Notes: generated by a model not told the origin, from the sequence alone. Numbered from the stretch's first letter, positions 49,925 through 63,154 are shown. The stretch is 64,000 nucleotides of DNA from Clostridia bacterium (GCA_017410065.1 JAFQRL010000005.1:23536-87535); one strand, 5' to 3'. Program-made: numbers and translations.

Positions 49925-50142
49925 GAGGACACTTCGGTCGAGAACGACCTCACTTTTCGCCGAATTTACCGTCTTGCCGTATTCATATACTCCTTGCGAG
50001 CATCGCCGATACTCGGCGGCACTACGTGCATCTTCGGTGAGACCGAAGTGCTCGCGGAGCAACCTGCGTCAGCCTTGCTTGCAAGCGAGCTTGCAGACAA
50101 GTCTTGACTTGGTTATATGGCGGCGCAGTAAATTACGACGAA
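49925..50142 (-). repeat. Family D element loaded with cargo 1 (left arm of the inverted repeat)
   Basis: Reverse complement reads TCGTCGTAATTT...TATA[124 bp]TATATGAATAC...AAATTCGGCGA. Confidence 0.85.
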
Positions 50143-50334
50143 CCTCATCCAAAAATCCCTGAAAAAGAGAATTTAAAACGAAATAATTTTTCCGCGAATA
50201 AAAGAAAAATTAGAAAAGGAAAGGATTTTCCAATTATTTTCAGATGCGATTTGTTGTAATTCGAGGTGCCGCTTGTATACAACAGCATAATTAAAAACAA
50301 TAATTAAAAAAATAAAAAGCAGTATTTTTTGATG

Positions 50335-50563
50335 GATTTGGAGCGAGAATCGTCGTAATTTTGTGAGCCGACGTATAACCAAGTCAAGACTTGTCTGCAA
50401 GCTCGCTTGCAAGCAAGGCTGACGCAGGTTGCTCCGCGAGCACTTCGGTCTCACCGAAGATGCACGTAGTGCCGCCGAGTATCGGCGATGCTCGCAAGGA
50501 GTATATGAATACAGCAAGACGGGAAATTCGGCGATAGACGAAGTCGGTCTCGCCCGAAGACGC
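50335..50563 (+). repeat. Family D element loaded with cargo 1 (right arm)
   Basis: 50374-50511 is the exact reverse complement of 49980-50117. Confidence 0.9.
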
Positions 50564-50585
50564 AAAAAAGACGGAGGTAATTAAG

Positions 50586-51281
50586 ATGGGTAAGGACGTC
50601 ATCATCGCCTGCGACTTCGCAAGCGCAGAGGAAACATTCGCTTTCCTCGATAAATTTGAGGGCAAGAAGCCCTTCGTTAAGATCGGAATGGAGCTCTACT
50701 ATGCAGAGGGCCCCGAAATCGTTCGTGAGATAAAGAAAAGAGGACACAAGATCTTCCTCGACCTTAAGCTTCACGATATCCCCAACACAGTAAAAAAGGG
50801 TATGGCAGTGCTCTCTCGCCTGGACGTTGATATGACAAACCTTCACGCCTCGGGCACCAAGGCAATGATGGAGGCAGCTCTTGAGGGTCTCACAAGACCC
50901 GACGGCACACGCCCCATACTCATCGCCGTCACACAGCTCACCTCCACGAGCCAGGAGAGAATGGAGTCAGACCTTCTTATCAAAGCACCCATAGACGAGG
51001 TAGTTATGCACTACGCTTCCTGCGCAAAGGAAGCAGGGCTCGACGGCGTTGTTTGCTCTCCCCTTGAGGCAGGTAAGGTCCACGACAGATGCGGCAAGAG
51101 CTTTATAACCGTTACCCCCGGTGTAAGATTTGCAGACGGCAATAAGGGCGACCAGGTCAGAGTTATGACCCCCGAGGAGGCAAAGAAGATCGGCTCCGAC
51201 TATATCGTTGTGGGCAGACCCATCACCGCCGCGGAGGATCCTGTTGCCGCATACAACCGCTGCTGCAAGGAATTTCTGTAA
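50586..51281 (+). CDS. pyrF: Orotidine-5'-phosphate decarboxylase
   Basis: [37 protein letters not shown]. Confidence 0.96.
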
Positions 51282-51315
51282 TTTTCGGGTAGATCGCGGC
51301 TGGCGCGCACGCCGC

Positions 51316-51381
51316 CGTCTATCGCCGAATTTTCCGTCTTGCTTTATTCATATAAAGCGGCGCAGAAAATTACGACGATTC
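51316..51381 (-). repeat. Family D element, empty
   Basis: Reverse complement reads AATCGTCGTAATTTTCTGCGCCGCTTTATATGAATAAAGCAAGACGGAAAATTCGGCGATAGAC. Confidence 0.85.
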
Positions 51382-51518
51382 TACCTCGAAAATTCCTAGA
51401 AATTCAGAGTTTTAAGAGCTTTAATAAATTTGAATTTCAGCAAATCCCATCTAAAATTTATTAAAAATCGGACGGAATATCTGTAATTTTATAATTAAAT
51501 CACGAAAAGGACAAAGCT

Positions 51519-52169
51519 ATGCAATCTTATAAAAGAGAATTCATTACATTCCTTGAGAACGCGGGCGTTCTCAAGTTTGGAGACTTCACCGCAAAAAGCG
51601 GCAGAAAGATTCCCTATTTCATCAACGCAGGCGAGATCAAAACAGGCGATCAGATAGCGAAGCTCGGCGAGTTCTACGCAAAGAGCTATCTTGACAAGGT
51701 CGGCAATAAGCGTGCCGTCCTCTACGGCCCCGCATACAAGGGCATTTCCATCGCCGTTGCCACCTCCATCGGTCTCTCCAAGAGCGGACTTGACGTTCCA
51801 TTCTTCTTCAACAGAAAGGAAGCAAAGGACCACGGCGAGGGCGGCATCTTCGTTGGCTGTAAGCCAACCGAAGGCGAGGAGATCGTTATCGTTGAGGACG
51901 TTATCACCGCAGGCACCGCCATCCGCGAAAGTATGGAGATCCTCTCCTCCCTGGACGGCGCAAAGGTCATCGCAACCTTCGTTATGGTAGACAGAAAGGA
52001 AAAGGGCAAGGGCACAAAGTCCGCAATGGCAGAGGTCGGCGAGGAGTTCGGCTTCCCCGTCTATTCCGTCGTTGACGTCTACGACATCATCGAGTACCTC
52101 GAAGAAAACCCCGCCCACGCCGATGACGTCGCCCGCATCAAAAACTACCTCACCGTCTGGGGCGCCTGA
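51519..52169 (+). CDS. pyrE: Orotate phosphoribosyltransferase
   Basis: FTAKSGRKIPYF, GPAYKGI, RKEAKDHGEGG, VEDVITAGTA. Confidence 0.96.
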   Translation: MQSYKREFITFLENAGVLKFGDFTAKSGRKIPYFINAGEIKTGDQIAKLGEFYAKSYLDKVGNKRAVLYGPAYKGISIAVATSIGLSKSGLDVPFFFNRKEAKDHGEGGIFVGCKPTEGEEIVIVEDVITAGTAIRESMEILSSLDGAKVIATFVMVDRKEKGKGTKSAMAEVGEEFGFPVYSVVDVYDIIEYLEENPAHADDVARIKNYLTVWGA

Positions 52170-52202
52170 TCCAATCTGAACCAAATCCCACACCTACACA
52201 AA

Positions 52203-52390
52203 ACACAAATAATCAGCATTTTTTCAGATAATTTTGAGTTGAGAAGCCTCGCTCACCCAGCATCAACAGCTTTATAAAGCAACACAAAAAACACAAATAA
52301 GCAGCATTTTTCAGATAATTTTGAGTTGAGAAGCTTCGCCCACCCAGCATCAACAGCTTCATAAAGCAACACCAAAAACACAAATAAGCA
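52203..52390. repeat. Tandem ~87-bp duplication
   Basis: ACACAAATAA starts at 52203, 52291 and 52378; two nearly identical units. Confidence 0.88.
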
Positions 52391-52403
52391 GGTTTTTTCG
52401 ATG

Positions 52404-52504
52404 GATTTGGAGCGAGAATCGTCGTAATTTTCTGCGCCGCCGTATATGAATACGGCAAGACGGAAAATTCGGCGATAGACGAAGTCGATCTCGCCCGAAG
52501 ACGC
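52404..52504 (+). repeat. Family D element, empty
   Basis: Same core as 50335-50563 without the 124-bp cargo. Confidence 0.88.
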
Positions 52505-52523
52505 GAAAAAACAGGAGAATTTT

Positions 52524-53588
52524 ATGAGAAATTTAGTCAACATCCTCGACCTTTCCGTCGAAGAAATCGACGACCTTATCAAGACCGCCTCGGACATAAT
52601 AGACAACCCCGAGCTATACGTGAACACCTGCCGCGGCAAAATTCTCGGCACGCTCTTTTTTGAGCCGTCAACCAGAACGCGACTGAGCTTCACCTCTGCA
52701 ATGATGAGCCTTGGCGGCAACGTGCTCGGCTTCTCCCAGGCGGCAAGCTCGTCTATCTCCAAGGGCGAAACGGTGGCAGACACCATTCGTATGGTCAGCG
52801 CATACTCGGATATCATCGTTATGCGCCACCCCAAGGAGGGCGCGCCTGTTGTGGCATCGGGTGTCTCAAACGTGCCCATAATCAACGCAGGCGACGGCGG
52901 TCACTTCCACCCCACCCAGACCCTCACCGACCTGCTCACCATCAAAAAGAAAAAGGGTCGCTTCAACGACCTGACTGTTGGTATCTGCGGCGACCTTAAG
53001 TATGGGCGCACCGTCCATTCGCTTATCTCCGCCCTCTGCCGCTACGACAACGTGCGCTTTGTGCTGATCTCCCCCGAGGAGTTGAGACTTCCCGACTACG
53101 TTAAGGACGAATACCTTTTCGGCGGCGGCTGTGAGTACGTTGAAACCGACAACCTTGAACGCGCGATTCCCTCCCTCGATATCCTCTATATGACGAGAAT
53201 TCAGGCAGAACGCTTTGAATCCCGCGAGGAATATGAACGCCTTAAGGACTCCTATATCCTGAACGCGGAAAAGCTGGAGTGCGCAAAGGAGGACCTCTCA
53301 ATTCTCCATCCCCTCCCCCGTGTAAACGAGATCGACGTGGACGTGGACGACGACCCGAGAGCAGATTATTTCGACCAGGCAATGTACGGCAGATATATCC
53401 GAATGGCACTCATTCTTATGCTTCTTAAAACCAAGGGCGTTGAGGATAGCCGCTACCACGGAATAGAAAACCCTCGCCTCGTTTGCAAAAACCCCCATTG
53501 CATCTCCTCCTCCGAGCGCGGTGTCAAGCTCCTCTTTGACGAGGAGAACCGTTGCATCTTCTGCGACCAAACCGCCGAGGAAAGATAA
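52524..53588 (+). CDS. pyrB: Aspartate carbamoyltransferase catalytic chain with a fused PyrI-like Zn domain
   Basis: [30 protein letters not shown]; C-terminal CKNPHC...CIFC. Confidence 0.95.
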
Positions 53589-53746
53589 TTAGCGATTACG
53601 TCGCCCCAAAATCTCCACCCTATAGTTATGTCGCTTTTCGGGAAAAGCTCCGCAAAAGCTTTAAAAATAATTATTGGTAAAAATACCGTATCGCAAGATA
53701 TCACTTTGAAAAAGGATGTTCTGTTAGTGTGACAACTACGCGAGAG

Positions 53747-53778
53747 GTATTCTGCGGTGTCACCTCGCAAGGGGTGAC
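53747..53778. terminator. Hairpin between convergent pyrB and trpB
   Basis: GGTGTCACC-TCGCAAGG-GGTGACACC followed by TTTT. Confidence 0.7.
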
Positions 53779-53882
53779 ACCTTTTGTTTTTAAAAAACAG
53801 CAGAACTCCAAGTTTAGCAGTGAAGCTAAAGCTGAAATTCCGCTGTTTTTTACATTATTTGCAAATAGTAATTTACATTTTA

Positions 53883-55112
53883 TTAGATTTTTTCGGGAAT
53901 AGGATAATTCTCTATAACGTAATCCATATCCTTATCGCCTCTGCCCGAAAGGCAGATAAGCACGGAGCCCTTGTCCATAGTTTTTGCAAGCTTCATACCG
54001 TAAGCTACCGCGTGGGAGCTTTCGATAGCGGGGATAATGCCTTCCAATCTTGCGAGGGTATAGAAGGCGTCGATGGTCTCCTCGTCGTTGATAACGTCAT
54101 ATTTAACTCTGCCGAGATCGCGAAGGAATGCGTGCTCGGGACCCGAGGAGGGATAGTCAAGACCGCTTGCAACCGAATAAACGGGAGCGGGCTCGCCGTT
54201 TTCGTCCTTAAGCATAATGCTGTTGAAGCCGTGCATTATGCCCTCCTCACCGTAGGTAAGGCTTGCGGCGTGGTCGCCAAGCTTTGCGCCTCTGCCGAGA
54301 GGCTCAACACCGTAAATATCAACGGGGTCATTAAGGAAGCCCGAGAACATACCCATCGCATTTGAGCCGCCGCCAACGCAAGCAACCACCGCGTCGGGAA
54401 GCTCGCCTGTCATAGAAACGAACTGCTCTCTTGCCTCAATACCGACAACGCTCTGGAAGTCTCTCACCATCATCGGGAAGGGGTGAGGGCCGAGAACCGA
54501 GCCGATGCAATAGATGGCATCCTTGTACTCTCTTGCATAAGCCGCAAACGCCGCGTCTACCGCCTCCTTAAGAGTAGCAAGACCGTGTGTCACCTCAACC
54601 ACGTTCGCGCCGAGGATCTTCATTCTCTCTACGTTGGGAGCCTGCTTTTTAATATCAACAGAGCCCATATAAATATCACATTCAAGACCGAAATAAGCCG
54701 CCGCAGTTGCAAGAGCAACACCGTGCTGACCCGCACCTGTTTCGGCAATGACCTTCTTCTTGCCCATATACTTCGCAAGAAGTGCCTCGCCCATACAGTG
54801 ATTAAGCTTGTGCGCGCCCGTGTGGTTCAGGTCCTCGCGCTTAACGTAAAGCTGAACGCCTGTGCCGATCTTATTGGAGAGCCTTTCAAGATGGGATATG
54901 GGAGTGGGTCTGCCCTGGAACTCCCTTCTGATCTTGCGAAGATCAGCAATAAATTTAGACGACTTGCAGATCGTCTGATAAGCGTCGGAGATCTCCTTCA
55001 TAGCCACCTGAAGCTCGGGAGAAATATATGCTCCGCCGTACTTGCCGAAGAAGCCCTCCTTTGAGGGATACTTCTTGAAATAAGTGTCAAAATTGATGCC
55101 GTTAAATTCCAT
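53883..55112 (-). CDS. trpB: Tryptophan synthase beta chain, stand-alone
   Basis: [55 protein letters not shown]. Confidence 0.93.
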
Positions 55113-55204
55113 TTTTCTTTCCTCTTTTCTTTTTTTCTTGCGTGTTATGCACGCGTCCTTTGCGTACTTCCCTGCGTTTTACGCATTTTTTCCGCCCGAG
55201 GAAT

Positions 55205-55465
55205 ATAAAAAGCCCCGAGCAATAATAGCTCGGGGCGAATAAATCCGCGGTGCCACCCGATTCGGGACAACGTCCCCTCATGTACTAAAGGGCAACGCCC
55301 CAACCATACATTGTGCAGATAACGGCTGCCTGCCGTCGAAGCCTACTCGCAAAGCTTTCGGTTCGCCCTCGAAAGTCCATTCACCAAAGCGCACTATACC
55401 GCAATCCCACCGCCTGCGGCTCTCTGTGTTAATAACACTATGGCTACTACTCTTTCTCATCGGTT
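55205..55465 (-). ncRNA. Trp-specific T-box riboswitch
   Basis: T-box GGGTGGCACCGCG (reverse complement of 55246-55258); terminator GCCCCGAGC...GCTCGGGGC-TTTTT; Stem I AGAGA and GGTGGGA elements; specifier GAA-TGG (TGG at 55377-55379). Confidence 0.92.
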
Positions 55466-55473
55466 ATGTGATG

Positions 55474-55502
55474 ATTTTACCACACCGCCGCGGCTTTGTC
55501 AA
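55474..55502 (-). promoter_or_regulatory. SigmaA promoter of the T-box/trpB leader
   Basis: Minus strand TTGACA-17 bp-TAAAAT with TG. Confidence 0.8.
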
Positions 55503-55595
55503 TACCTTTTTGAAAAATTTCCCGAAATCCCCCGAAAATTATTTTGGAAAATTCCCCGAATTTTCCTCTTGAAATATCCTCCAAAGCTTCGCTCT

Positions 55596-55670
55596 CCGTC
55601 CGAGATCCGACCGCCGGCGGTCGCCCTTCGGGTTTCGGCTTCGGGCTCCCGCCCTCCGCTCAAAATGACA
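55596..55670. repeat. Partial family E element (right end)
   Basis: Nearly identical to 34824-34897; ends GCTCAAAATGACA. Confidence 0.85.
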
Positions 55671-55697
55671 ACAGACGGAACGTGCCTCGTTTCTCAT

Positions 55698-55893
55698 AAT
55701 CAAGGCGCAAGCCTTGTATATCATCAGCTCTTTGAGCTGTATATCATCAAGGCGTAAGCCTTGTATATCATCAGCTCTTTGAGCTGTATATTTGCTATTC
55801 GTCGGTCGTACACGCCGAATAACGCAAGATACCGTTAAAAACGGTATGCATCGCGGCACAGCCGTGTATATCATCAGCCATTTGGGCTGCATC
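55698..55893. repeat. Family A array with one 68-bp module
   Basis: Six hairpins on TGTATATCATCA linkers; module at 55785-55852. Confidence 0.9.
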
Positions 55894-55902
55894 TCCCTCT
55901 TT

Positions 55903-56463
55903 CTACACAAAAACAGGCCGTATCTGCTCGCCCCTCATAGCCGATAAAAACGCTTCGGGTACTCTTTTCATATCGGCGACCAGCGAGTGCGGCTTGCCCG
56001 TCGGGTCGTCCTGCCGCATCGGCACGAAATAAACCGAACGCCTTGTGATCAGTCTGCCGATGTTGGAGAGATTTTGAGAAAGACCGTCGTTTGTGGCAAG
56101 GGCAATAAGGGTGAGTCTATCCTGCCGCAGGTGCGCCTTTGCCGCCATAGTCACCGCCGTGTCGGTGATACCCCCTGCAAGCTTTGCAAGAGTGTTGCCT
56201 GTGCAGGGTGCGATTATCAGCCCCTCAAGAGGTGCCTTCGGTCCAAGCGGCTCTGCCGCCTCTATGGTGTGTATCACCCTTCTTTTGCAGAGCTCCTCAA
56301 CCTCTCCGATAAAGTCCTCTGCCTTATGAAATCTTGTGTCCTTTGTGTAGGCATTCTCGCTCATTATGGGCTGTATCTCATACCCCATATCAATAAGTGT
56401 GCGAAGTGAAGAAAAAGATGCGCCCATCGTGCAAAACGAAGCGCAAAAAGCATATCCAAGCAT
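55903..56463 (-). CDS. spoVFB: Dipicolinate synthase subunit B
   Basis: GYAFCASFCT, EPLGPK, IAPCTGNTLAKLA, MAAKAHLR, ATNDGL, QDDPTGKPHSLVA. Confidence 0.93.
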   Translation of the reverse strand: MLGYAFCASFCTMGASFSSLRTLIDMGYEIQPIMSENAYTKDTRFHKAEDFIGEVEELCKRRVIHTIEAAEPLGPKAPLEGLIIAPCTGNTLAKLAGGITDTAVTMAAKAHLRQDRLTLIALATNDGLSQNLSNIGRLITRRSVYFVPMRQDDPTGKPHSLVADMKRVPEAFLSAMRGEQIRPVFV

Positions 56464-56475
56464 ATCCCTCTCCCC

Positions 56476-57246
56476 CTATCCGCGCCCTTTGTCGGAGGCT
56501 CTTGAAAGCTTATCCTTAAGGTGCTCGGCGATCCTTCTCGCATAAAGCCTCCCCGCGCTTTGGGGATAATATTTCTCGGGAATCGAGGGTAGCTTCACCA
56601 AGCCCGAAATCCCCTCAAGATATCTCCCCGAGGCAAGATCTATGACCCTCAAGCCACAGCACTCCCTAATCGCTTTCTTTGTAACTATCCTTGCAGGGGC
56701 TGTGTTTATAAGCACGTCAAGCCCCGAAAAATCAGACGAGCCGCGGTAGTCAACAGCCTCAATTCCAAGCTCCGAAAGCTCTCTTAAGGTGGCGGAATTT
56801 CCGCTATAAACCCTCACTCTCGCGCCGAGAAAAAGAAGCAGCCTCAAAAGCCTTGACCCTATCCGCCCATAGCCAACTATCCCGAAGGAAAGCTCCGAGG
56901 GAGAGGCGGGAAGCTCGGTGAGAATATACCCAAGCGCGCCAAGGGCTGTGAGTGTCGCATTTTCGGATATCAGCACCTCGTCAAGAGAGCCGTCGTATAT
57001 AGAGCCGCCAAGCTCCAAGATCTCTCTCGCCACACCCTCGGGTATCCCATACCCCGCAACAAGCGTACCCTCCCTCACCTCTCGGCAAACCTCGGAAAGC
57101 TCCACCTCCGTGCCCGAAACGTGAACGCCGTCTCGGCTGGTGGGAATTGGAAGTATGATAATTCGGCAGTCGCCAACGTAGTCCGCGGCAACCGCAGAGG
57201 AGCACACCCTGAGTCTCTCCCCCATACCGTAAGTTAAAATTTCCAT
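56476..57246 (-). CDS. spoVFA: Dipicolinate synthase subunit A-like protein
   Basis: IILPIP, ENATLTALGA, VGYGRIG, LINTAP, IDLAS; directly upstream of spoVFB. Confidence 0.8.
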   Translation of the reverse strand: MEILTYGMGERLRVCSSAVAADYVGDCRIIILPIPTSRDGVHVSGTEVELSEVCREVREGTLVAGYGIPEGVAREILELGGSIYDGSLDEVLISENATLTALGALGYILTELPASPSELSFGIVGYGRIGSRLLRLLLFLGARVRVYSGNSATLRELSELGIEAVDYRGSSDFSGLDVLINTAPARIVTKKAIRECCGLRVIDLASGRYLEGISGLVKLPSIPEKYYPQSAGRLYARRIAEHLKDKLSRASDKGRG

Positions 57247-57394
57247 ATATATACCTCGTGACGGAAAACCCCGTCAAAATCAGTATATGATATAAGATAA
57301 AAAAAGGAGGCTGTCTCGCATTTGAAACAACCCCGCTTTGTTTGATAGGGGATGGGCAGATCTTATCCTACCCAATATCACATCCCCAAAATTA

Positions 57395-57541
57395 TCATTT
57401 TTTCATCATACTCTTAACGTTCTCAAGCCCTGTTTTCACGAGCCCCTTGGTCTTGTTGTAAAGATTTATCATACTTGCGCCCGCAAGAGTGAAAAGTGCC
57501 AGGGTCGCATAAGGGTGCCGACGCTTCTTGCCGTCCTTCAT
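57395..57541 (-). CDS. Small 48-aa protein missed by the ORF track
   Basis: AAGGAG RBS 6 nt before ATG; MKDGKKRRHPYATLALFTLAGASMINLYNKTKGLVKTGLENVKSMMKK. Confidence 0.6.
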   Translation of the reverse strand: MKDGKKRRHPYATLALFTLAGASMINLYNKTKGLVKTGLENVKSMMKK

Positions 57542-57872
57542 ATATTTCTCCTTAAGAATGTTTTCGGGCGGATAACGCTCCGCGCATTTTTATTTCGTGC
57601 CCTATCCCGAAAAAGGGCTCCTCGCCCAAATGAGAGATAGCTTTGGCACTTAAGCGCGTGAGTTTGCGCCGCGCTTTGCTCTTATTTTGCCACGGCAAGA
57701 AGAAAAGTAAACCACCAAATCCCAAAAAATCAAGCACCATTTATTTCCATCGCCTATAAATTTTAGTTTGTTTCGGGAAGATTTTATATAAAAAGCAGGA
57801 CAATTTACTGTTGCATTTTTTTCTTATTTATTATATAATTATTAAGGCATTGGCAAAGAAACGGAGAAATAT

Positions 57873-58730
57873 ATGAGTAGCTTTGTAAAAATAGTTTTGC
57901 TTATCGGCATAATGGTCGGCACCTCGATCCAATCGGTTTTCAAAAAGGCGTATAACAAGCGCGGTTATAGCAGCGTTTTTATCTTCGGCTCGATCACCGT
58001 GGCTTCGGCGGCGCTTTTCTTCGTCGCATCGGCAAAGTACCCCTTAAGCTTCTCGGCAGACATTCTGCCATACGCCTTCGGCTTTGCGGCGGCTTATTGC
58101 TGCGCAACTATATTCGGTATGCTTGCCATCAACGAGGGCTCCCTTTCCCTCACGTCTCTTGCAACCTCCTATTCCCTGCTTATCCCAACCCTCTGGGGTC
58201 TGCTGTTTTATAACGACACGGCGACCCATTGGTTCTTTATAGGTCTCGCACTCCTTCTTATCAGCCTTGTGCTTATCAACGCAAAGGGCGGCGAAATAAA
58301 GATCACTCTTAAATGGGCGATCTTCGTGCTGCTTGCATTCCTCGGCAACGGTATCTGCTCCACGGTGCAAAGCGGCTACGCAAAAACTCACGCGCAGGGC
58401 ACCTCCGAATTTATGATAATCGCACTTTCGGCGGTCTTCCTTGTGCTGCTTTCCGCCGCCTTCCTCACCGAGCGCGGCTCCCTCGGCACCTCCCTTAAGA
58501 AAAATTGGTACCTGATGGTGCTTTGCGGCGCGGCAAACGGCGCGGTCAACCTTTTCGTCATCCTTCTCTCCCCCAATATGAACACCTCGCTGATGTTCCC
58601 TCTCATATCCGCAGGCGGCATCGTCCTCACCTCCCTCGTCTCCATCTTCATATATAAGGAAAAGCTCTCGCTTCTTCAATATATCGGTATGGTAATGGGT
58701 ATCGGAGCTATCGTATTTATGAATTTATAA
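57873..58730 (+). CDS. DMT/EamA-family transporter
   Basis: About ten hydrophobic helices in two repeated halves; EGSLSLT; IFIYKEKLS. Confidence 0.85.
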   Translation: MSSFVKIVLLIGIMVGTSIQSVFKKAYNKRGYSSVFIFGSITVASAALFFVASAKYPLSFSADILPYAFGFAAAYCCATIFGMLAINEGSLSLTSLATSYSLLIPTLWGLLFYNDTATHWFFIGLALLLISLVLINAKGGEIKITLKWAIFVLLAFLGNGICSTVQSGYAKTHAQGTSEFMIIALSAVFLVLLSAAFLTERGSLGTSLKKNWYLMVLCGAANGAVNLFVILLSPNMNTSLMFPLISAGGIVLTSLVSIFIYKEKLSLLQYIGMVMGIGAIVFMNL

Positions 58731-58792
58731 GGCTTTTTGTAAACAATTATTTTCAAAATTAATAAAAAATAAAACAAAACGGAGAAAAAGCT

Positions 58793-60466
58793 ATGTTGAA
58801 TTGTAAAATCATTTCAGGACTTGATAAGCCCCTTCTCGGCAGTAAAATTGAGGACTACAAGGAGCGCACCAATATATCCGTGCTTCGCGGCGAAAAGGCT
58901 ACCTTCCAGATGATATACACCCTGGATTTCAGGAAAGAGGGAAACTTCTCAAGAAACCTCACCGTAAATCCTTCGGGCGAGCTTGCTAAATATACCACTC
59001 TTAAAGACGTTCAATCGGTGCCTGCGGTGTTTAATTACCGCGGAGATGTTGACGATGATTTTATCACCACAGCACCCTCCCTTATTCCCGACGTTCTGGC
59101 GCCTCTTTCCTTTAACGGCAGACTTGTTGCTTGCTACGGCGCTCTCAAATCCCTTTGGATAGAGATCGAGATACCCGAAAATGCCGAGCTTTCGGGCAAG
59201 GCTGATCTCAAATTGGATCTTGAGATCGAAAAATGGACAGACGAGGTCGAAGGCTCATTCACAAGCTCTCTCGCTCTCTCCGTTGATATAATAGACGCCA
59301 CCCTTCCCGAGCAGGAGCTTATCTTCACTCAATGGTTCCACCACGACTGCCTTGCAAATTATTACAGGGTTAAAAAATGGTCGGACGAGCATTTTGAAAT
59401 AATTGAAAAATTCGCAAAATGCGCCAAAAAGAACGGTATAAATATGCTATTCACCCCAATAATCACGCCCCCTCTCGATAACGCGGCAGACACGCGCGAC
59501 CTCCAGCTCGCCGACGTCACCGTTACCGATAGCGGCTATGAATTCGGCTGGGATAAGCTTGACCGTTGGATCGACATCTGCGATAGAGTCGGAATTGAAA
59601 AATTTGAGATAGGCCACCTCTTTACCCAAGGAGGAGCGGCATACGCAACCAAGGTCTCGGGTGTCAAGAACGGAGTTTACCAAAGACTCTTTGCAAAGGA
59701 CGTTCCCTGCGACGACCCCGAATACGTCAGATTTTTAAGAGCGCTCCTCACCTCTCTCATCGCACATATGAGGGCGCGCGGCGACGATAAGAGAATGATG
59801 TTCCATATCTCGGACGAGCCAAGCGACACCCAGCTTGAAACCTATAATAAAGCAAAATCTGCCGTCGCGGATCTCCTTGAGGGCTATCACATCTTCGATG
59901 CCCTTTCACATTACGATTTCTACGAGCGCGGAGTTGTTAAAAAGCCTGTCGTTATTCTTCATCATCTTGAAGAATTTGCAGAAAAGGGCGTGCCAGGTCT
60001 TTGGACTTATAATTGCTGTGCGCCCGCAGGCGGCTATTCCAACCGCTTTTTGCCGATGACCCTCTCGCGCAACCGTTCTCTCGCCCTTGTTCTTTATAAG
60101 TACAATATTGAGGGCTTCCTTCATTGGGGCTTCAACTTCTATAACACAAGCGGCTCCTATAACGAAATTAACCCCTTCCACGACACAAACTCCGGCGGAC
60201 ACTTCCCCTCGGGCGACGCCTTCTCGGTTTACCCCGGCACAGGCGGCACCCCCCTCGAATCAATGCGCCTCTCCTGCTTTGCAGACGGTCTTTGCGACCT
60301 TCGCGCCTTCAAGCTCTGCGAGAGCCTCTACTCCCGCGACGAAGTCATCTCCGCCCTCGAAGCCTTCCTCGGCGCGCCCATAAAAGCTAATACCTATATC
60401 AATAGCTCCGAGAAAATGCACGCCCTTCGCGAGATGATCAATGAAATGATCAAAGCGAAAATCTAA
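58793..60466 (+). CDS. DUF4091/GH123-like glycoside hydrolase
   Basis: TQWFHHDCLANYY, HLFTQGG, FHISDEP (adjacent DE pair), GFLHWGFNFY, FPSGDAFSVYPG, SMRL...GLCD; no signal peptide. Confidence 0.8.
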   Translation: MLNCKIISGLDKPLLGSKIEDYKERTNISVLRGEKATFQMIYTLDFRKEGNFSRNLTVNPSGELAKYTTLKDVQSVPAVFNYRGDVDDDFITTAPSLIPDVLAPLSFNGRLVACYGALKSLWIEIEIPENAELSGKADLKLDLEIEKWTDEVEGSFTSSLALSVDIIDATLPEQELIFTQWFHHDCLANYYRVKKWSDEHFEIIEKFAKCAKKNGINMLFTPIITPPLDNAADTRDLQLADVTVTDSGYEFGWDKLDRWIDICDRVGIEKFEIGHLFTQGGAAYATKVSGVKNGVYQRLFAKDVPCDDPEYVRFLRALLTSLIAHMRARGDDKRMMFHISDEPSDTQLETYNKAKSAVADLLEGYHIFDALSHYDFYERGVVKKPVVILHHLEEFAEKGVPGLWTYNCCAPAGGYSNRFLPMTLSRNRSLALVLYKYNIEGFLHWGFNFYNTSGSYNEINPFHDTNSGGHFPSGDAFSVYPGTGGTPLESMRLSCFADGLCDLRAFKLCESLYSRDEVISALEAFLGAPIKANTYINSSEKMHALREMINEMIKAKI

Positions 60467-60499
60467 AATTTAAAGCATCTTCCTATAAGAAAAATCAAC

Positions 60500-60543
60500 A
60501 AAAAGCTTGCCCGAGCCACCATCGCCCGAGCAAGCTTTTTATT
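60500..60543. terminator. Bidirectional terminator candidate
   Basis: AAAAAGCTTGC...GCAAGCTTTTT. Confidence 0.65.
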
Positions 60544-60638
60544 TTTATCAATTTCCGAATTTCCAAAAAGATTTTGGATGAGATGCTTTGATTCAGCGCC
60601 TCCGATGAGAATAGATTTTCGAGGGATTTCCCCGATAG

Positions 60639-60799
60639 CATCGTCGTAATTTTCTGCGCCGCCTGTATAAAACAGCATAAATGCTGTGCGTATATTGCTC
60701 GGCGGCGTTAGGGCTTGCCGCCGTTTGCTCCGCAAACCGCAATAGTACGCAATACGTCAAGCCGGGAAATTCGGCGATAGGTGAGGTCGTACTCAACCG
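60639..60799 (+). repeat. Family D element loaded with cargo 2
   Basis: ATCGTCGTAATTTTCTGCGCCGCCTGTATA[~82 bp]ATACGTCAAGCCGGGAAATTCGGCGATAG. Confidence 0.85.
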
Positions 60800-60842
60800 A
60801 ACCGATATATCCAAAAATCACCGAAAAGCACGTTTTCCTTGC

Positions 60843-60944
60843 GAATTCGGAGCGAGAATCGTCGTAATTTACTGCGCTGCTGTATATACATACAGCAAGC
60901 CGGGAAATTCGGCGATAGACGAAGTCGGTCTCGCCCGAAGTCGT
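60843..60944 (+). repeat. Family D element, empty
   Basis: GGAGCGAGAATCGTCGTAATTT...GCTGTATATACATACAGC...GACGAAGTCGGTCTCGCCCGAAG. Confidence 0.88.
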
Positions 60945-60951
60945 AGGAAAA

Positions 60952-61806
60952 CTACACGCCCGAGTAGGCGGAGAATCCCCCATCTATCGCCAACACCACT
61001 CCCGTAATAAACCCTGCCGCCTTCTCATTAAGGAGGAAGAGAAGACCGCCCTCAAGCTCGGAAGCCTCGCCAAATCTGCCCATAGGAGTGGCGGCAAGGA
61101 TCTTGCCTGTGCGCGCGGTGGGAGTGCCGTCGGGGTTAAAGAGAAGCGCCGCATTCTGCGCGGTGGAGAAGAAGCCTGGAGCTATCGCATTCACCCTGAT
61201 ACCAACCTTGGAGAAATGAACGGCAAGCCACTTTGTGAAATTGGAGACCGCCGCCTTCGCGCCCGAATAAGCGGGTATCTTTGTGAGAGGCGTGAATGCA
61301 TTCATCGAGGAAATATTCAAAATACTGCACCCCTCCTTACCAACCATCTGGCGCGCAAACGCCTGTGTGGGAATAAGAGTGCCGAGGAAATTGAGGTTAA
61401 ACACGAAGCCAACGCCTGCGGCGTCAAGATCAAAGAAGCTCTTGGTGTCCGCATCAATGTCGCCCATCTCAAAATATTCCTTGTCGGTGGTCGCCTTAGG
61501 GTTGTTACCGCCCGCGCCGTTCACAAGTATATCGCAGCTGCCAAGCTCTGCGGCAACCGCATCAGCCACCGAGTAGCAAAGCTCCTTATCAAGCACGTTG
61601 CAGGCATACGCCTTGGCAACGCCGCCTTCGGCAACTATCTCGTCAGCATACTGTCTTGCCTTCTCCTCGTTAAGATCGAGCAGCGCAACCTTCGCGCCCG
61701 CCCTCGCAAGCACCTTCGCGAAATGCGAGCACAAAACTCCGCCCGCACCCGTCACCACAACCACCTTGCCCGAAAGATCGGTGTTGAGAACGTTATTGTT
61801 GATCAT
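60952..61806 (-). CDS. uxuB: SDR-family D-mannonate (fructuronate) oxidoreductase
   Basis: TGAGGVL, NGAGGNNP, SSMNAF, YSGAK, NAIAPGFF; lies downstream of uxuA. Confidence 0.88.
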   Translation of the reverse strand: MINNNVLNTDLSGKVVVVTGAGGVLCSHFAKVLARAGAKVALLDLNEEKARQYADEIVAEGGVAKAYACNVLDKELCYSVADAVAAELGSCDILVNGAGGNNPKATTDKEYFEMGDIDADTKSFFDLDAAGVGFVFNLNFLGTLIPTQAFARQMVGKEGCSILNISSMNAFTPLTKIPAYSGAKAAVSNFTKWLAVHFSKVGIRVNAIAPGFFSTAQNAALLFNPDGTPTARTGKILAATPMGRFGEASELEGGLLFLLNEKAAGFITGVVLAIDGGFSAYSGV

Positions 61807-61907
61807 CGATTATCTCCTTATTTTTTCTTTATAAAAACGCTGAAAATCGGCTTTTCGAGGGAGTTTTGGATGAGAAGCTTCGTTTAATGACCGACAGGCA
61901 GTATATA

Positions 61908-61994
61908 ACAGCATAAATGCTGTGCGTATATTGCTCGGCGGCGTTGGGTGTTGCCGCCGTTTGCTTTGCAAACCGCAATAGTACGCAATACGTC
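61908..61994. repeat. Cargo 2 copy without the full family D flanks
   Basis: Nearly identical to 60672-60758; differences fall in loops. Confidence 0.85.
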
Positions 61995-62107
61995 GAGATC
62001 GTTAAACGGAGGTAGGAATTACCGCTCTGAAAATTCACAGCCTACGAAAACTCATTTCGGGAAAACCATTCCTGTCCTCGCCGAAAATCACCGAAAATCG
62101 CCAAAAA

Positions 62108-63154
62108 TCACCGAAAAGCCTTCTCTGTAGCTTCGAAAAGGCCATTTATATACGCCGCCCCCAGCGCCCTATCATAAAGCCCATACCCGGGCTTGCCTGT
62201 CTCACCCCAGATCATTCTGCCGTGGTCGGGGCGAACGTAGCCGTCAAAGCCGTTCTCCACAAGAGCGCGGACCACCTCTGCCATATCCATCGAGCCGCAG
62301 CTTGAAAGATGACCCGACTCCTCAAAGCTTCCGTCGTCAAGCAAGCGCACGTTTCTGATGTGCATAAATGCGATCCTGTCCATCGCGCTGTACTTTCTCA
62401 CCATAGCCACAATATCATTGGTTGCGGCGCATCCGAGCGAGCCTGTGCAAAGGCAAAGACTGTTTGCAGGGCTATCAACTATCTTCAAAAATCTATCAAG
62501 ATTTTCCTCGTTTGTAATTATTCTCGGAAGTCCGAAAATGGGATATGGCGGATCGTCGGGATGTATCGCCATTCTCACGCCGCACTCCTCTGCAACGGGA
62601 ATAACCTTCTTGAGAAATTTCTCAAGATTTGCCCAAAGCCCCTCCTCGCCAAGCTTGCCGTATGCCGTGATAAGCTCGCGTACCTCGTCCTTCGAGTAGC
62701 TTGCATCCCAGCCGGGAAGGTTGATATCGTCAACAAGCGGATCAAGACCGCGCATCTGATCCCAATACATAACAAGGCTCGTGGAGCCGTCCTCTGCCTT
62801 TTTATCAAGTTGAGTTCTCGTCCAGTCGAAAACAGGCATAAAGTTATAAGTCACGCACTTGATGCCGTACTTTGCACAGCGACGCACGTTCTCGCAATAC
62901 ACCTCAATAAGCTCGTCCACGTTGTCTCTGCCGAGCTTAATATTTTCGTGAACGGGTATAGACTCAACGATATCGAAAAGCATACCGTTTGCCTCAACCT
63001 GCTCCTTCATTTTCCTTATAGACTCCTCGGGCCAGACCTCACCGGGCTTCACGTCGTAGACCGCGGAAACGATAGACCGCATATTGGGTATCTGGCGAAT
63101 GTATTCAAGCGGAATGGGATCTCCCTCTCCGTACCATCTGAATGAAAGCTTCAT
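62108..63154 (-). CDS. uxuA: Mannonate dehydratase
   Basis: FRWYG, ESIPVHENIK, YNFMPVFDWTRT, HPDDPP, CTGSLG, RPDHGR, PGYGLYDRALG. Confidence 0.96.
   Translation of the reverse strand: MKLSFRWYGEGDPIPLEYIRQIPNMRSIVSAVYDVKPGEVWPEESIRKMKEQVEANGMLFDIVESIPVHENIKLGRDNVDELIEVYCENVRRCAKYGIKCVTYNFMPVFDWTRTQLDKKAEDGSTSLVMYWDQMRGLDPLVDDINLPGWDASYSKDEVRELITAYGKLGEEGLWANLEKFLKKVIPVAEECGVRMAIHPDDPPYPIFGLPRIITNEENLDRFLKIVDSPANSLCLCTGSLGCAATNDIVAMVRKYSAMDRIAFMHIRNVRLLDDGSFEESGHLSSCGSMDMAEVVRALVENGFDGYVRPDHGRMIWGETGKPGYGLYDRALGAAYINGLFEATEKAFR

Follow-up and report, generated by a model that had tools for sequence, protein, structure and literature searches.

A Genus-Wide Family of Hairpin-Forming Intergenic Repeats with Nested Insertions in Uncultured Gut Clostridia

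Introduction

The ERIC elements (IRU or RU-1) of enterobacteria are imperfect palindromes of about 127 bp that occupy transcribed intergenic or intercistronic sites across several genera, and the Correia/NEMIS elements of Neisseria and the RUP/BOX/SPRITE elements of the pneumococcus are non-coding repeats of 100–200 bp that form long stem-loops and are co-transcribed with neighbouring genes. Co-transcription and processing have been described for ERIC and Correia (Delihas 2008, PMC2229807), Correia hairpins are cut by RNase III (PMC2229807), and orientation-dependent effects of ERIC on flanking mRNAs have been reported (De Gregorio 2005, as cited in PMC2229807). The BOX elements are modular (PMC3049150), the target sites of YPAL elements in Yersinia lie across or next to regions of dyad symmetry (PMC2229807), and REPIN hairpins are kept by compensatory changes and were read as single-stranded DNA hairpins (Bertels & Rainey 2011, PMC3116915), while IS1397 inserts specifically into the loops of REPs (Clement 1999, as cited in PMC3116915). 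Here we describe family D, a family of hairpin-forming repeats of about 130 bases that we followed up in a 64,000-nt stretch of DNA from a Clostridia bacterium (GCA_017410065.1, JAFQRL010000005.1:23536-87535), referred to below as the window, which corresponds to C1:23536-87535 of a 47-contig, 2.37-Mb assembly (G000) that is 96% complete. The data presented below demonstrate that family D is an undescribed repeat family, present genus-wide in uncultured gut Clostridia.

Family D has in common with the known kinds its size, palindromic fold, intergenic or intercistronic site, compensatory changes and nesting. It differs from ERIC/IRU, Correia/NEMIS, BOX/RUP, YPAL, bcr1 (Bacillus cereus group) and the REPINs in being without TA termini, a clear duplication or an identifiable transposase, in abutting stop codons in one orientation, in that its boxes and fold are kept genus-wide while the helices diverge, in that its tip hosts other repeat families, and in the conservation of wobble pairs on one strand. 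The ERICs have TA termini, 7-bp terminal inverted repeats and a TA target duplication, none of which is clear in D, whereas D abuts stop codons strictly in one orientation, carries inserts that are dispersed repeat families, and has no sequence similarity to ERIC. Wilson and Sharp, in 2006, reportedly described longer ERICs with inserts of about 70 bp at fixed internal sites and with compensatory substitutions. Correia and RUP, unlike D, have clear terminal inverted repeats, TA duplication and candidate transposases (IS630 for RUP), and although RUP nests inside other mobile elements, the nesting of cargo in D is aimed at one hairpin tip. The REP and REPIN sequences resemble D as extragenic hairpin repeats with compensatory changes, and IS1397 in REP loops is a precedent for insertion into a hairpin tip; D, however, is one long palindrome with internal boxes rather than a doublet of short REPs, and the genome contains no RAYT/Y1 gene. 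The YPAL (RU-2) elements are without TA termini and have internal inverted repeats, as D does, but they have target duplications of 3–26 bp, which were not seen in D, and no sequence relationship to it.

Results

Copies of Family D in the Window

An initial annotation of the window reported six copies of a dispersed stem-loop element (49925-, 50335+, 51316-, 52404+, 60639+ and 60843+), and sequence comparison recovered all six. The inner hairpins and the outer stem ATCGTCG/CGGCGAT with its U·G pair were correct as described, as was the statement that three copies are empty, two carry a 124-nt cargo (cargo A) and one an unrelated cargo (cargo B). The D copies, together with related elements detected beside them, are as follows.

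49925-50166, minus strand: D copy with cargo A (49990-50113); tail directly 3' of the pyrD stop codon; leader E-like
50236-50290, plus strand: truncated left arm of D3 type with the first 16 nt of module B
50324-50570, plus strand: D copy with cargo A (50378-50501) and a TATA duplication flanking the cargo
51284-51414, minus strand: empty D copy with a variant tail hairpin; tail abuts the pyrF stop codon
52220-52393, plus strand: two 87-bp tandem units with a D/E-type leader (TTTTTCAGATAATTTTGAGTTGAGAAGC) at the start of each
52393-52515, plus strand: empty D copy, sense to the operon; ends 9 nt upstream of the pyrB start
60616-60810, plus strand: D2-subtype copy with module B (60665-60755) at the tip
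60825-60951, plus strand: empty D copy; tail abuts the stop codon (60952-60954) of a convergent gene for a 284-aa dehydrogenase
61851-62110, plus strand: element of the sister family E with module B (61901-61991) at the tip

The genes carB, pyrK, pyrD, pyrF, pyrE and pyrB are all encoded on the plus strand within the D-bearing region. The copy at 50324-50570 ends 16 nt upstream of the pyrF start, and the region with the pyrF Shine-Dalgarno sequence comes from the element itself; the predicted fold energy of the copy in front of pyrB (52393-52515) was -56.5 kcal/mol. In the D2-subtype copy, 81 nt separate the motifs GTATA and AATAC that bracket cargo B. The tail of the E element encodes the last three codons and the stop codon (62108-62110) of the convergent uxuA gene.

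In the pyrD-pyrF gap, the two copies loaded with cargo A form the arms of a 215-nt inverted repeat (49932-50146 with 50345-50559); the arms are 93% complementary and have 198 nt of AT-rich spacer between them. Over the central 138 bp both arms are identical, and the flanking D arms belong to different subtypes. Cargo A therefore reached the second copy recently, whether it was inserted a second time or copied from one inverted arm to the other by gene conversion. The repeat is real and beyond chance, but the A-loaded pair is a single inverted repeat, and its two members are not independent of one another.

Predicted Fold and Covariation of Family D

Family D, flanks included, was predicted to fold as a single long imperfect palindrome with energies of -53 to -60 kcal/mol, the forward strand being more stable than the reverse by 5–14 kcal/mol in all nine D copies compared. 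The element begins at the 5' end with a T-rich leader (TTTTYGAKGRATTTTGAG), followed by a long stem that differs among copies and by a conserved tip, G(C/G)CGTA-loop-TACG(G/T)C. Located 3' of the tip are a box (AACGGCGATAG), a small tail hairpin, and an A-rich tail that pairs back to the leader. Terminal inverted repeats are thus present in the pairing of leader and tail (for example, GTTTTCCTTGCGAATTCGGAGCGAGA with TCTCGCCCGAAGTCGTAGGAAAAC), and because the whole element is palindromic they are indistinguishable from the stem.

Covariation was examined within the species in an alignment of 15 copies (13 from this genome, one from a related genome, G003, and one from a metagenome), from which the cargoes had been removed. 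Pairing is seen in 91% of the cells of this alignment, and 10 pairs have changes on both sides. The observed values for cells paired, cells changed on both sides and covariation score were matched by none of 500 shuffles, and the number of pairs with changes on both sides by 3 of 500; the number of further pair types was not significant (134 of 500 shuffles). Slid controls of the same alignment paired at only 34–45%. A covariance model built from the D copies gave matches in 74 of the 201 genomes of the genus, and an alignment of 37 hits from 28 loci, fitted to the model and for that reason favouring the modelled structure, paired in 90.6% of cells, with 34 of 37 pairs changing on both sides and values that none of 500 shuffles reached. 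We consider the genus-wide covariation, as judged from these sequences, to be robust, with slid controls at approximately 40–47% and helix swaps visible in the alignment. The helices are wholly different between species, while four boxes are kept, namely GATTTTGAG, AGAATCGTCGTT, GGCGTA-loop-TACGTCGAG and AACGGCGATAGAA. These results agreed with the earlier proposal of a structured element. The outcome that would have refuted it, a loss of significant covariation once more copies were included, did not occur, and the covariation became stronger with additional copies.

The same proposal had also considered a non-coding RNA. A search of Rfam with both loci and the loci of cargo A homologues, at the gathering score and at E<=10, returned only chance hairpin matches and no match to family D, and most copies are antisense to the gene that they abut, so that this part of the proposal was not borne out. 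Scans for promoter and terminator consensus sequences found none in or beside the D elements. On both strands, a U-run lies 5' of the hairpin and an A-run 3' of it, indicating that D is not an intrinsic terminator in either direction. The single metatranscriptome found yielded one 265-nt contig, located in pyrE, and essentially no coverage of the elements.

Genome-Wide Copies, the Sister Family E and Placement at Stop Codons

Searches with blastn and nhmmer detected about 9 intact D copies (on C1, C8, C42, C43 and C47) and, besides these, about 6 split copies, with all D sequences on six contigs and left halves occurring as well. A profile based on the leader retrieved about 35 elements that fall into two related families, D and E; the genome totals were about 15 D and 14 E elements. 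Both families have in common the leader (TTTTYGAKGRATTTTTGGAKGAG), a tip of the form GTATA-loop-ATAC, and a tail (...CTCGCC(C)GAA...AAAATCA). Family D is one branch of a genus-wide superfamily of non-coding imperfect palindromes of about 125–145 nt, which includes E.

The placement of the elements was far from uniform with respect to neighbouring genes. On our reading of the placement tables, about 17 of the 19 elements that could be scored in this genome have a tail that runs up to or into the stop codon of a convergent gene. The tails of D and E end in ...AAAAT(C/T)A, the last three bases of which are the reverse complement of TGA or TAA. The only sense-oriented elements are those before pyrF (50324-50570) and pyrB (52393-52515). 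Of 25 loci in other species, 18 have a convergent gene as the 3' neighbour, and the element abuts its stop codon in 8–9 of these. The genes beside D elements are unrelated housekeeping genes.

A 10.7-kb contig of the assembly (C43:1800-7400) contains three DegV-like paralogues of 297–298 aa with stacks of repeats 3' of each; the stacks are composed of D, half-D, E and B, and are the densest repeat hotspot seen in the genome.

Turnover of Copies between Strains and Species

Many goat, cattle and other gut metagenomes contain this species, which allowed orthologous sites to be compared. A contig of a second strain (X3) anchored in pyrF and pyrE has a single C in place of 51284-51414, and in another X3 contig, which is tied to its place by pyrD and the unique spacer, the 49925 copy is empty, with the tip GCTGTATACACATACGGC. 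The first of these is the sole clean pair of empty and filled sites, and its target-site duplication is at most an ambiguous AATT with extra small duplications. In X3, the sequence of the 50236-50290 arm continues into B (loose end ATGCTGTGCGTAT), and both X3 and X4 have an E-type tail, not D, at the stop codon of the dehydrogenase gene (the 60825-60951 junction). Close relatives represented by contigs in the ENA differ further: one (L044) has the 51316 copy with the tip GACGTAT/ATACGTC, versus GCTTTAT/ATAAAGC in our assembly, that is, three paired swaps between nearly identical flanks, and another (L037) has, between pyrE and pyrB, a left arm of D, part of B and an E element where our assembly has the intact D copy at 52393-52515. 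One further metagenome contig (L028) carries an empty D2 copy, the sole extra D2 recovered by a pattern scan of metagenomes.

Family D in its exact form is restricted in its distribution. It was detected by BLAST in only one of 24 sampled genomes of the same genus, G003, a metagenome-assembled genome from roe-deer rectum ("Clostridia bacterium RGIG4707"), and an exact-pattern scan of 185,579 species genomes returned only G003 and one chance match inside a gene. An exact look-up of the PyrF protein returned only the window's own assembly. The single D copy of G003 lies in the gap between uxuA and the dehydrogenase gene, in the position where the present genome has E and B. Copy numbers of D-like elements vary from 0 to about 15 per genome. 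This restriction to a lineage, together with the second strain that is without the 51316 copy and without cargo A in the 49925 copy, supported the initial view that the element is mobile.

In G042 the operon is compact, with gaps of 2, 19 and 32 nt; the pyrE-pyrB gap of G003 (L022) is occupied by a 14-unit mini-hairpin array with GTATATCATC linkers, and that of G010 (L025) by a 200-nt palindrome, while GAGGAATTAG/CTAATTCCT arrays are found in all three pyr gaps of G007 (L023). From the sequences compared, the pyr intercistronic sites look like recurrent landing places for unrelated palindromic repeats. Two sister lineages (L039 and L041) have a pair of D copies, minus then plus, at the pyrD-pyrF gap, which are of other subtypes and without cargo A.

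The Hairpin Tip as a Shared Junction for Cargoes and Breakage

The inserts were listed across the genome, and both cargoes proved to be dispersed families. Module B is about 90 nt long, and its copies, of which there are at least 12 (on C1, C23, C30, C35 and C43), are 90–96% identical. Every copy is found between GTA(T/C)A and AATAC at the tip of a hairpin, the hairpins belonging to at least five different families, and a variant right end of B (..CCGCAAAAYTACCGCCGTATAAWAYCAAAC) lies directly in front of E elements. Its predicted fold is multi-branched, and no match to it was found in 200 genomes of the family. The loci of module B are as follows.

Window 60665-60755 and 61901-61991: module B in the D2-subtype copy and in the E element
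C1:5591, C23:4639, C30:37126 and 37286, and C35:64649: module B
C43:1891-2496 and 4816: module B

Cargo A represents a structured motif of its own, about 125 nt long, in which a 5' hairpin is followed by a closing helix around three covarying hairpins. The closing helix of the cargo (GCUCCGCGAGC/GCUCGCAAGGAG) is invariant and contains a Shine-Dalgarno-like GGAG. There are four more copies of the motif in this genome and further ones in three other genera, where changes in the closing helix are compensated; the loci noted are given below.

C2:26698-26778, minus strand: A motif, this genome
C11:680-759, plus strand: A motif, this genome
C11:18567-18649, minus strand: A motif, this genome
C5:41326-41421, minus strand: A motif, this genome
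C22:79533-79576, plus strand: A motif, this genome
L051:1501-1583: A motif
L052:132-214 and 394-475: A motif
L053:352-430: A motif

The other A copies directly follow TATAAT boxes and precede unrelated genes, namely one for a serine hydrolase (C2), mutS2 (C5) and one for a tRNA. Outside D, the copies terminate in GTATAA, and two of the loci have an 11-nt direct repeat, GTATAATnTAT, on either side of the motif; within D the cargo is flanked by TATA. The motif had no match in Rfam; on the basis of its sequence and position, a mobile leader cassette and a new cis-regulatory RNA are both conceivable.

The motif GTATA(A) is found at the left flank and the right end of both cargoes. In addition, five D copies consist of the left arm only; they represent at least three independent junction types, and break at ...GCGCCGCC|GTAT. 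The tip, with its GTATA/AATAC junctions, its truncation points and the swaps of its stems between strains, is thus a shared junction, and it behaves as a hotspot of breakage and recombination. A second variable site is located at the tail hairpin, where GACGAAGTC is replaced by a longer GC-rich hairpin in the 51316 copy and in other subtypes, and it is at this site, not at the tip, that length varies genus-wide. The idea of a loop that accepts different cassettes at one site therefore holds as a description of this species, in which the tip is shared, but has to be amended on two points, the second variable site and the nature of the cargoes, which are independent dispersed modules. The cargoes are other small structured repeats that nest at the tip of D, and not payloads of a scaffold.

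Searches for Mobilising Enzymes

Six transposase families (Y1_Tnp, DDE_3, DDE_Tnp_1, rve, IS110 and TnpB) were searched for in the binned contigs of the assembly, and none of them was found. No match to Y1_Tnp/RAYT (PF01797, E<=0.01) was found in either this genome or G003. The only match to IS110 was weak (24.8 bits, below the family cut-off) and lies at C41:29351-29596 (L045), at the start of a 1462-aa open frame that we presume may be Cas9-like, and a weak zinc-ribbon match to TnpB corresponds to a 431-aa protein with zinc-ribbon repeats, which is not TnpB. Three other genomes with an A-like motif (G056, G071 and G111) all encode Y1 transposases; a link of cargo A to IS200/IS605 was not supported, as there is no A-like sequence beside their Y1 genes. 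An integron attC site was also rejected, since the outer ends of D read 5'-GTTTT...AAAAC-3', the reverse order of R''/R'; IntI was not searched for. The orientation of D alternates (-,+,-,+) among the housekeeping pyr genes, with no cassette array in one orientation.

Other Structured Elements of the Window

A T-box leader (Rfam RF00230, 105 bits) at 55228-55469 on the minus strand is the sole curated RNA family in the window. A mini-hairpin array with the linker TGTATATCATCA is located at 55696-55892, and has a GTATAT motif in common with the tips of D and E.

Discussion

We favour, with a rough probability of 0.6, the interpretation that family D consists of non-autonomous, selfish structured repeats of the ERIC/Correia/BOX/bcr1 kind, similar to miniature inverted-repeat transposable elements (MITEs) or ERICs, with nested insertions at the tip. 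According to this interpretation, D and E would have spread as non-autonomous selfish DNA. They have reached about 30 copies in this species, land immediately 3' of stop codons in one preferred orientation and sometimes provide the stop codon itself. They have invaded the pyrD-pyrF-pyrE-pyrB operon, once compact, and copies come and go between strains. The AT-rich tip may be the preferred site of insertion, breakage or short-tract gene conversion, because in an extruded hairpin it alone would be unpaired and because pairing constrains it least. The long helix (-53 to -60 kcal/mol), when co-transcribed, probably alters mRNA processing or stability, as do ERIC, Correia and REP, and in the pyr operon such an effect would act between cistrons.

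Several observations weigh against a selfish repeat of this kind. Counted on the forward strand, G·U pairs exceed A·C mismatches by 58 to 9 in the genome and by 99 to 25 in the genus, and the U·G pair of ATCGUCG/CGGCGAU is kept in 26 of 36 sequences; this wobble pattern argues, at the level of sequence, that one single strand folds and is under selection, as RNA or as single-stranded DNA. The strand favoured by the wobbles is antisense to the abutted gene, so that simple co-transcription does not explain the pattern. Moreover, a genus-wide architecture and boxes with diverging helices fit a selected RNA better than a young MITE. No terminal 5'-TA-3', clear target-site duplication or element-specific transposase was found, and all six transposase families searched for are absent from the 96%-complete assembly; metagenome-assembled genomes often lose insertion sequences. 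Finally, the probable effect on mRNA is argued by analogy only.

The excess of G·U pairs might in principle be mutational. By reasoning, however, if C-to-T change were stronger in the sense or lagging-template strand, G·U would be enriched on the strand opposite to the observed one, and the asymmetry therefore points to selection on one folded strand. Self-correction of the palindrome, or co-conversion of the close arms of the tip, can mimic compensatory change, but neither can easily account for a strand-specific wobble pattern. The covariation itself is equally expected for single-stranded DNA hairpins or self-correcting palindromes.

These considerations lend some weight to a functional, strand-specific RNA family, either a small RNA or a cis-acting 3'-end or antisense element, in which selection on the RNA would keep the helices, and the tip and the tail hairpin would be tolerated expansion sites, like the variable arms of other RNAs. 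Such a family would be expected to have the genus-wide covariation (34 of 37 pairs), the sequence boxes conserved among variable helices, the G·U excess with a U·G kept on one strand, the better fold of the forward strand in all nine copies, and the non-random orientation to neighbouring genes that we observed. We nevertheless regard it as possible but unlikely, since copies are gained, lost and replaced between strains, number from 0 to about 15 per genome, and lie next to unrelated housekeeping genes. Furthermore, the scans found no promoter or terminator in or beside the element, the U-rich 5' and A-rich 3' ends on either strand do not form an intrinsic terminator, Rfam gave no match, the only metatranscriptome found gave no coverage, and the fitting of the genus alignment to the model favours the very structure that it is cited for.

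A related view, which we put forward as doubtful, is that D and E are genus-wide strand-specific folding elements whose GTATA tip would be a dedicated docking site for modules, with an insertion or recombination machinery that targets hairpin loops at work in genomes where the six transposase families searched gave no find. The modules would be B, the A motif of four genera and perhaps the GTATATCATC-linked mini-hairpin arrays. The strand-specific folding in this proposal is suggested by the conserved U·G wobble, the conserved boxes and the covarying helices.

It is also conceivable, although improbable in our judgement, that a recombinase or transposase of folded single-stranded DNA uses the elements and their cargoes as substrates, in the manner of IS200/IS605 PATE, REPIN/RAYT or attC. 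An enzyme that cuts at GTATA in the tip would explain both the strand-specific wobbles, whose asymmetry points to one folded strand, and the shared junction motif, as all junctions involve GTATA: the tip of D is GTATA|TGAATAC, B reads GTATA...AATAC, A is flanked by TATA within D and by the 11-nt direct repeat GTATAATnTAT elsewhere, and the truncations lie exactly 5' of GTAT. Y1 transposases are encoded in all three other genomes with the A motif, but the genes for them have no A-like sequence next to them; this genome encodes neither Y1_Tnp nor TnpB, and G003 no Y1_Tnp. The outer ends, 5'-GTT...AAC-3', are the reverse of attC (R'' ...AAC / GTT... R'), and elements alternating in orientation among housekeeping genes do not resemble a cassette array.

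Pyrimidine-responsive leaders of pyrF and pyrB (a PyrR-type attenuator or a riboswitch), to which the sense orientation of the copies at 50324-50570 and 52393-52515 directly upstream of the ribosome-binding sites might point, are contradicted by the comparative data and hardly credible, since relatives are without a leader there (gaps of 2–32 nt in G042, and orthologous gaps that are empty or filled with other repeats), the other copies, most of them antisense, follow unrelated genes (dehydrogenase, uxuA, DegV paralogues), Rfam yielded no match to the PyrR binding site or another family, and there is no alternative terminator/anti-terminator structure.

The D elements bear on several aspects of the biology of these bacteria. 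Read-through of the pyr operon would give a hairpin of about 630 nt, a potential double-stranded RNA, in the pyr mRNA. In these uncultured gut Clostridia, structured repeats that change fast have settled time and again in housekeeping operons, which in some species are compact, and different repeat families fill the same operon gaps in different species. Repeats of the D type break short-read assemblies, and an annotator could take them for riboswitches or small RNAs. The shared GTATA junction, and the finding that the cargoes are families in their own right, provide testable handles on nesting and recombination. The combination of turnover between strains with a genus-wide architecture and strong covariation makes family D a good system in which to ask what maintains such hairpins, the candidate forces being RNA function, a single-stranded DNA intermediate, and self-correction of the palindrome.

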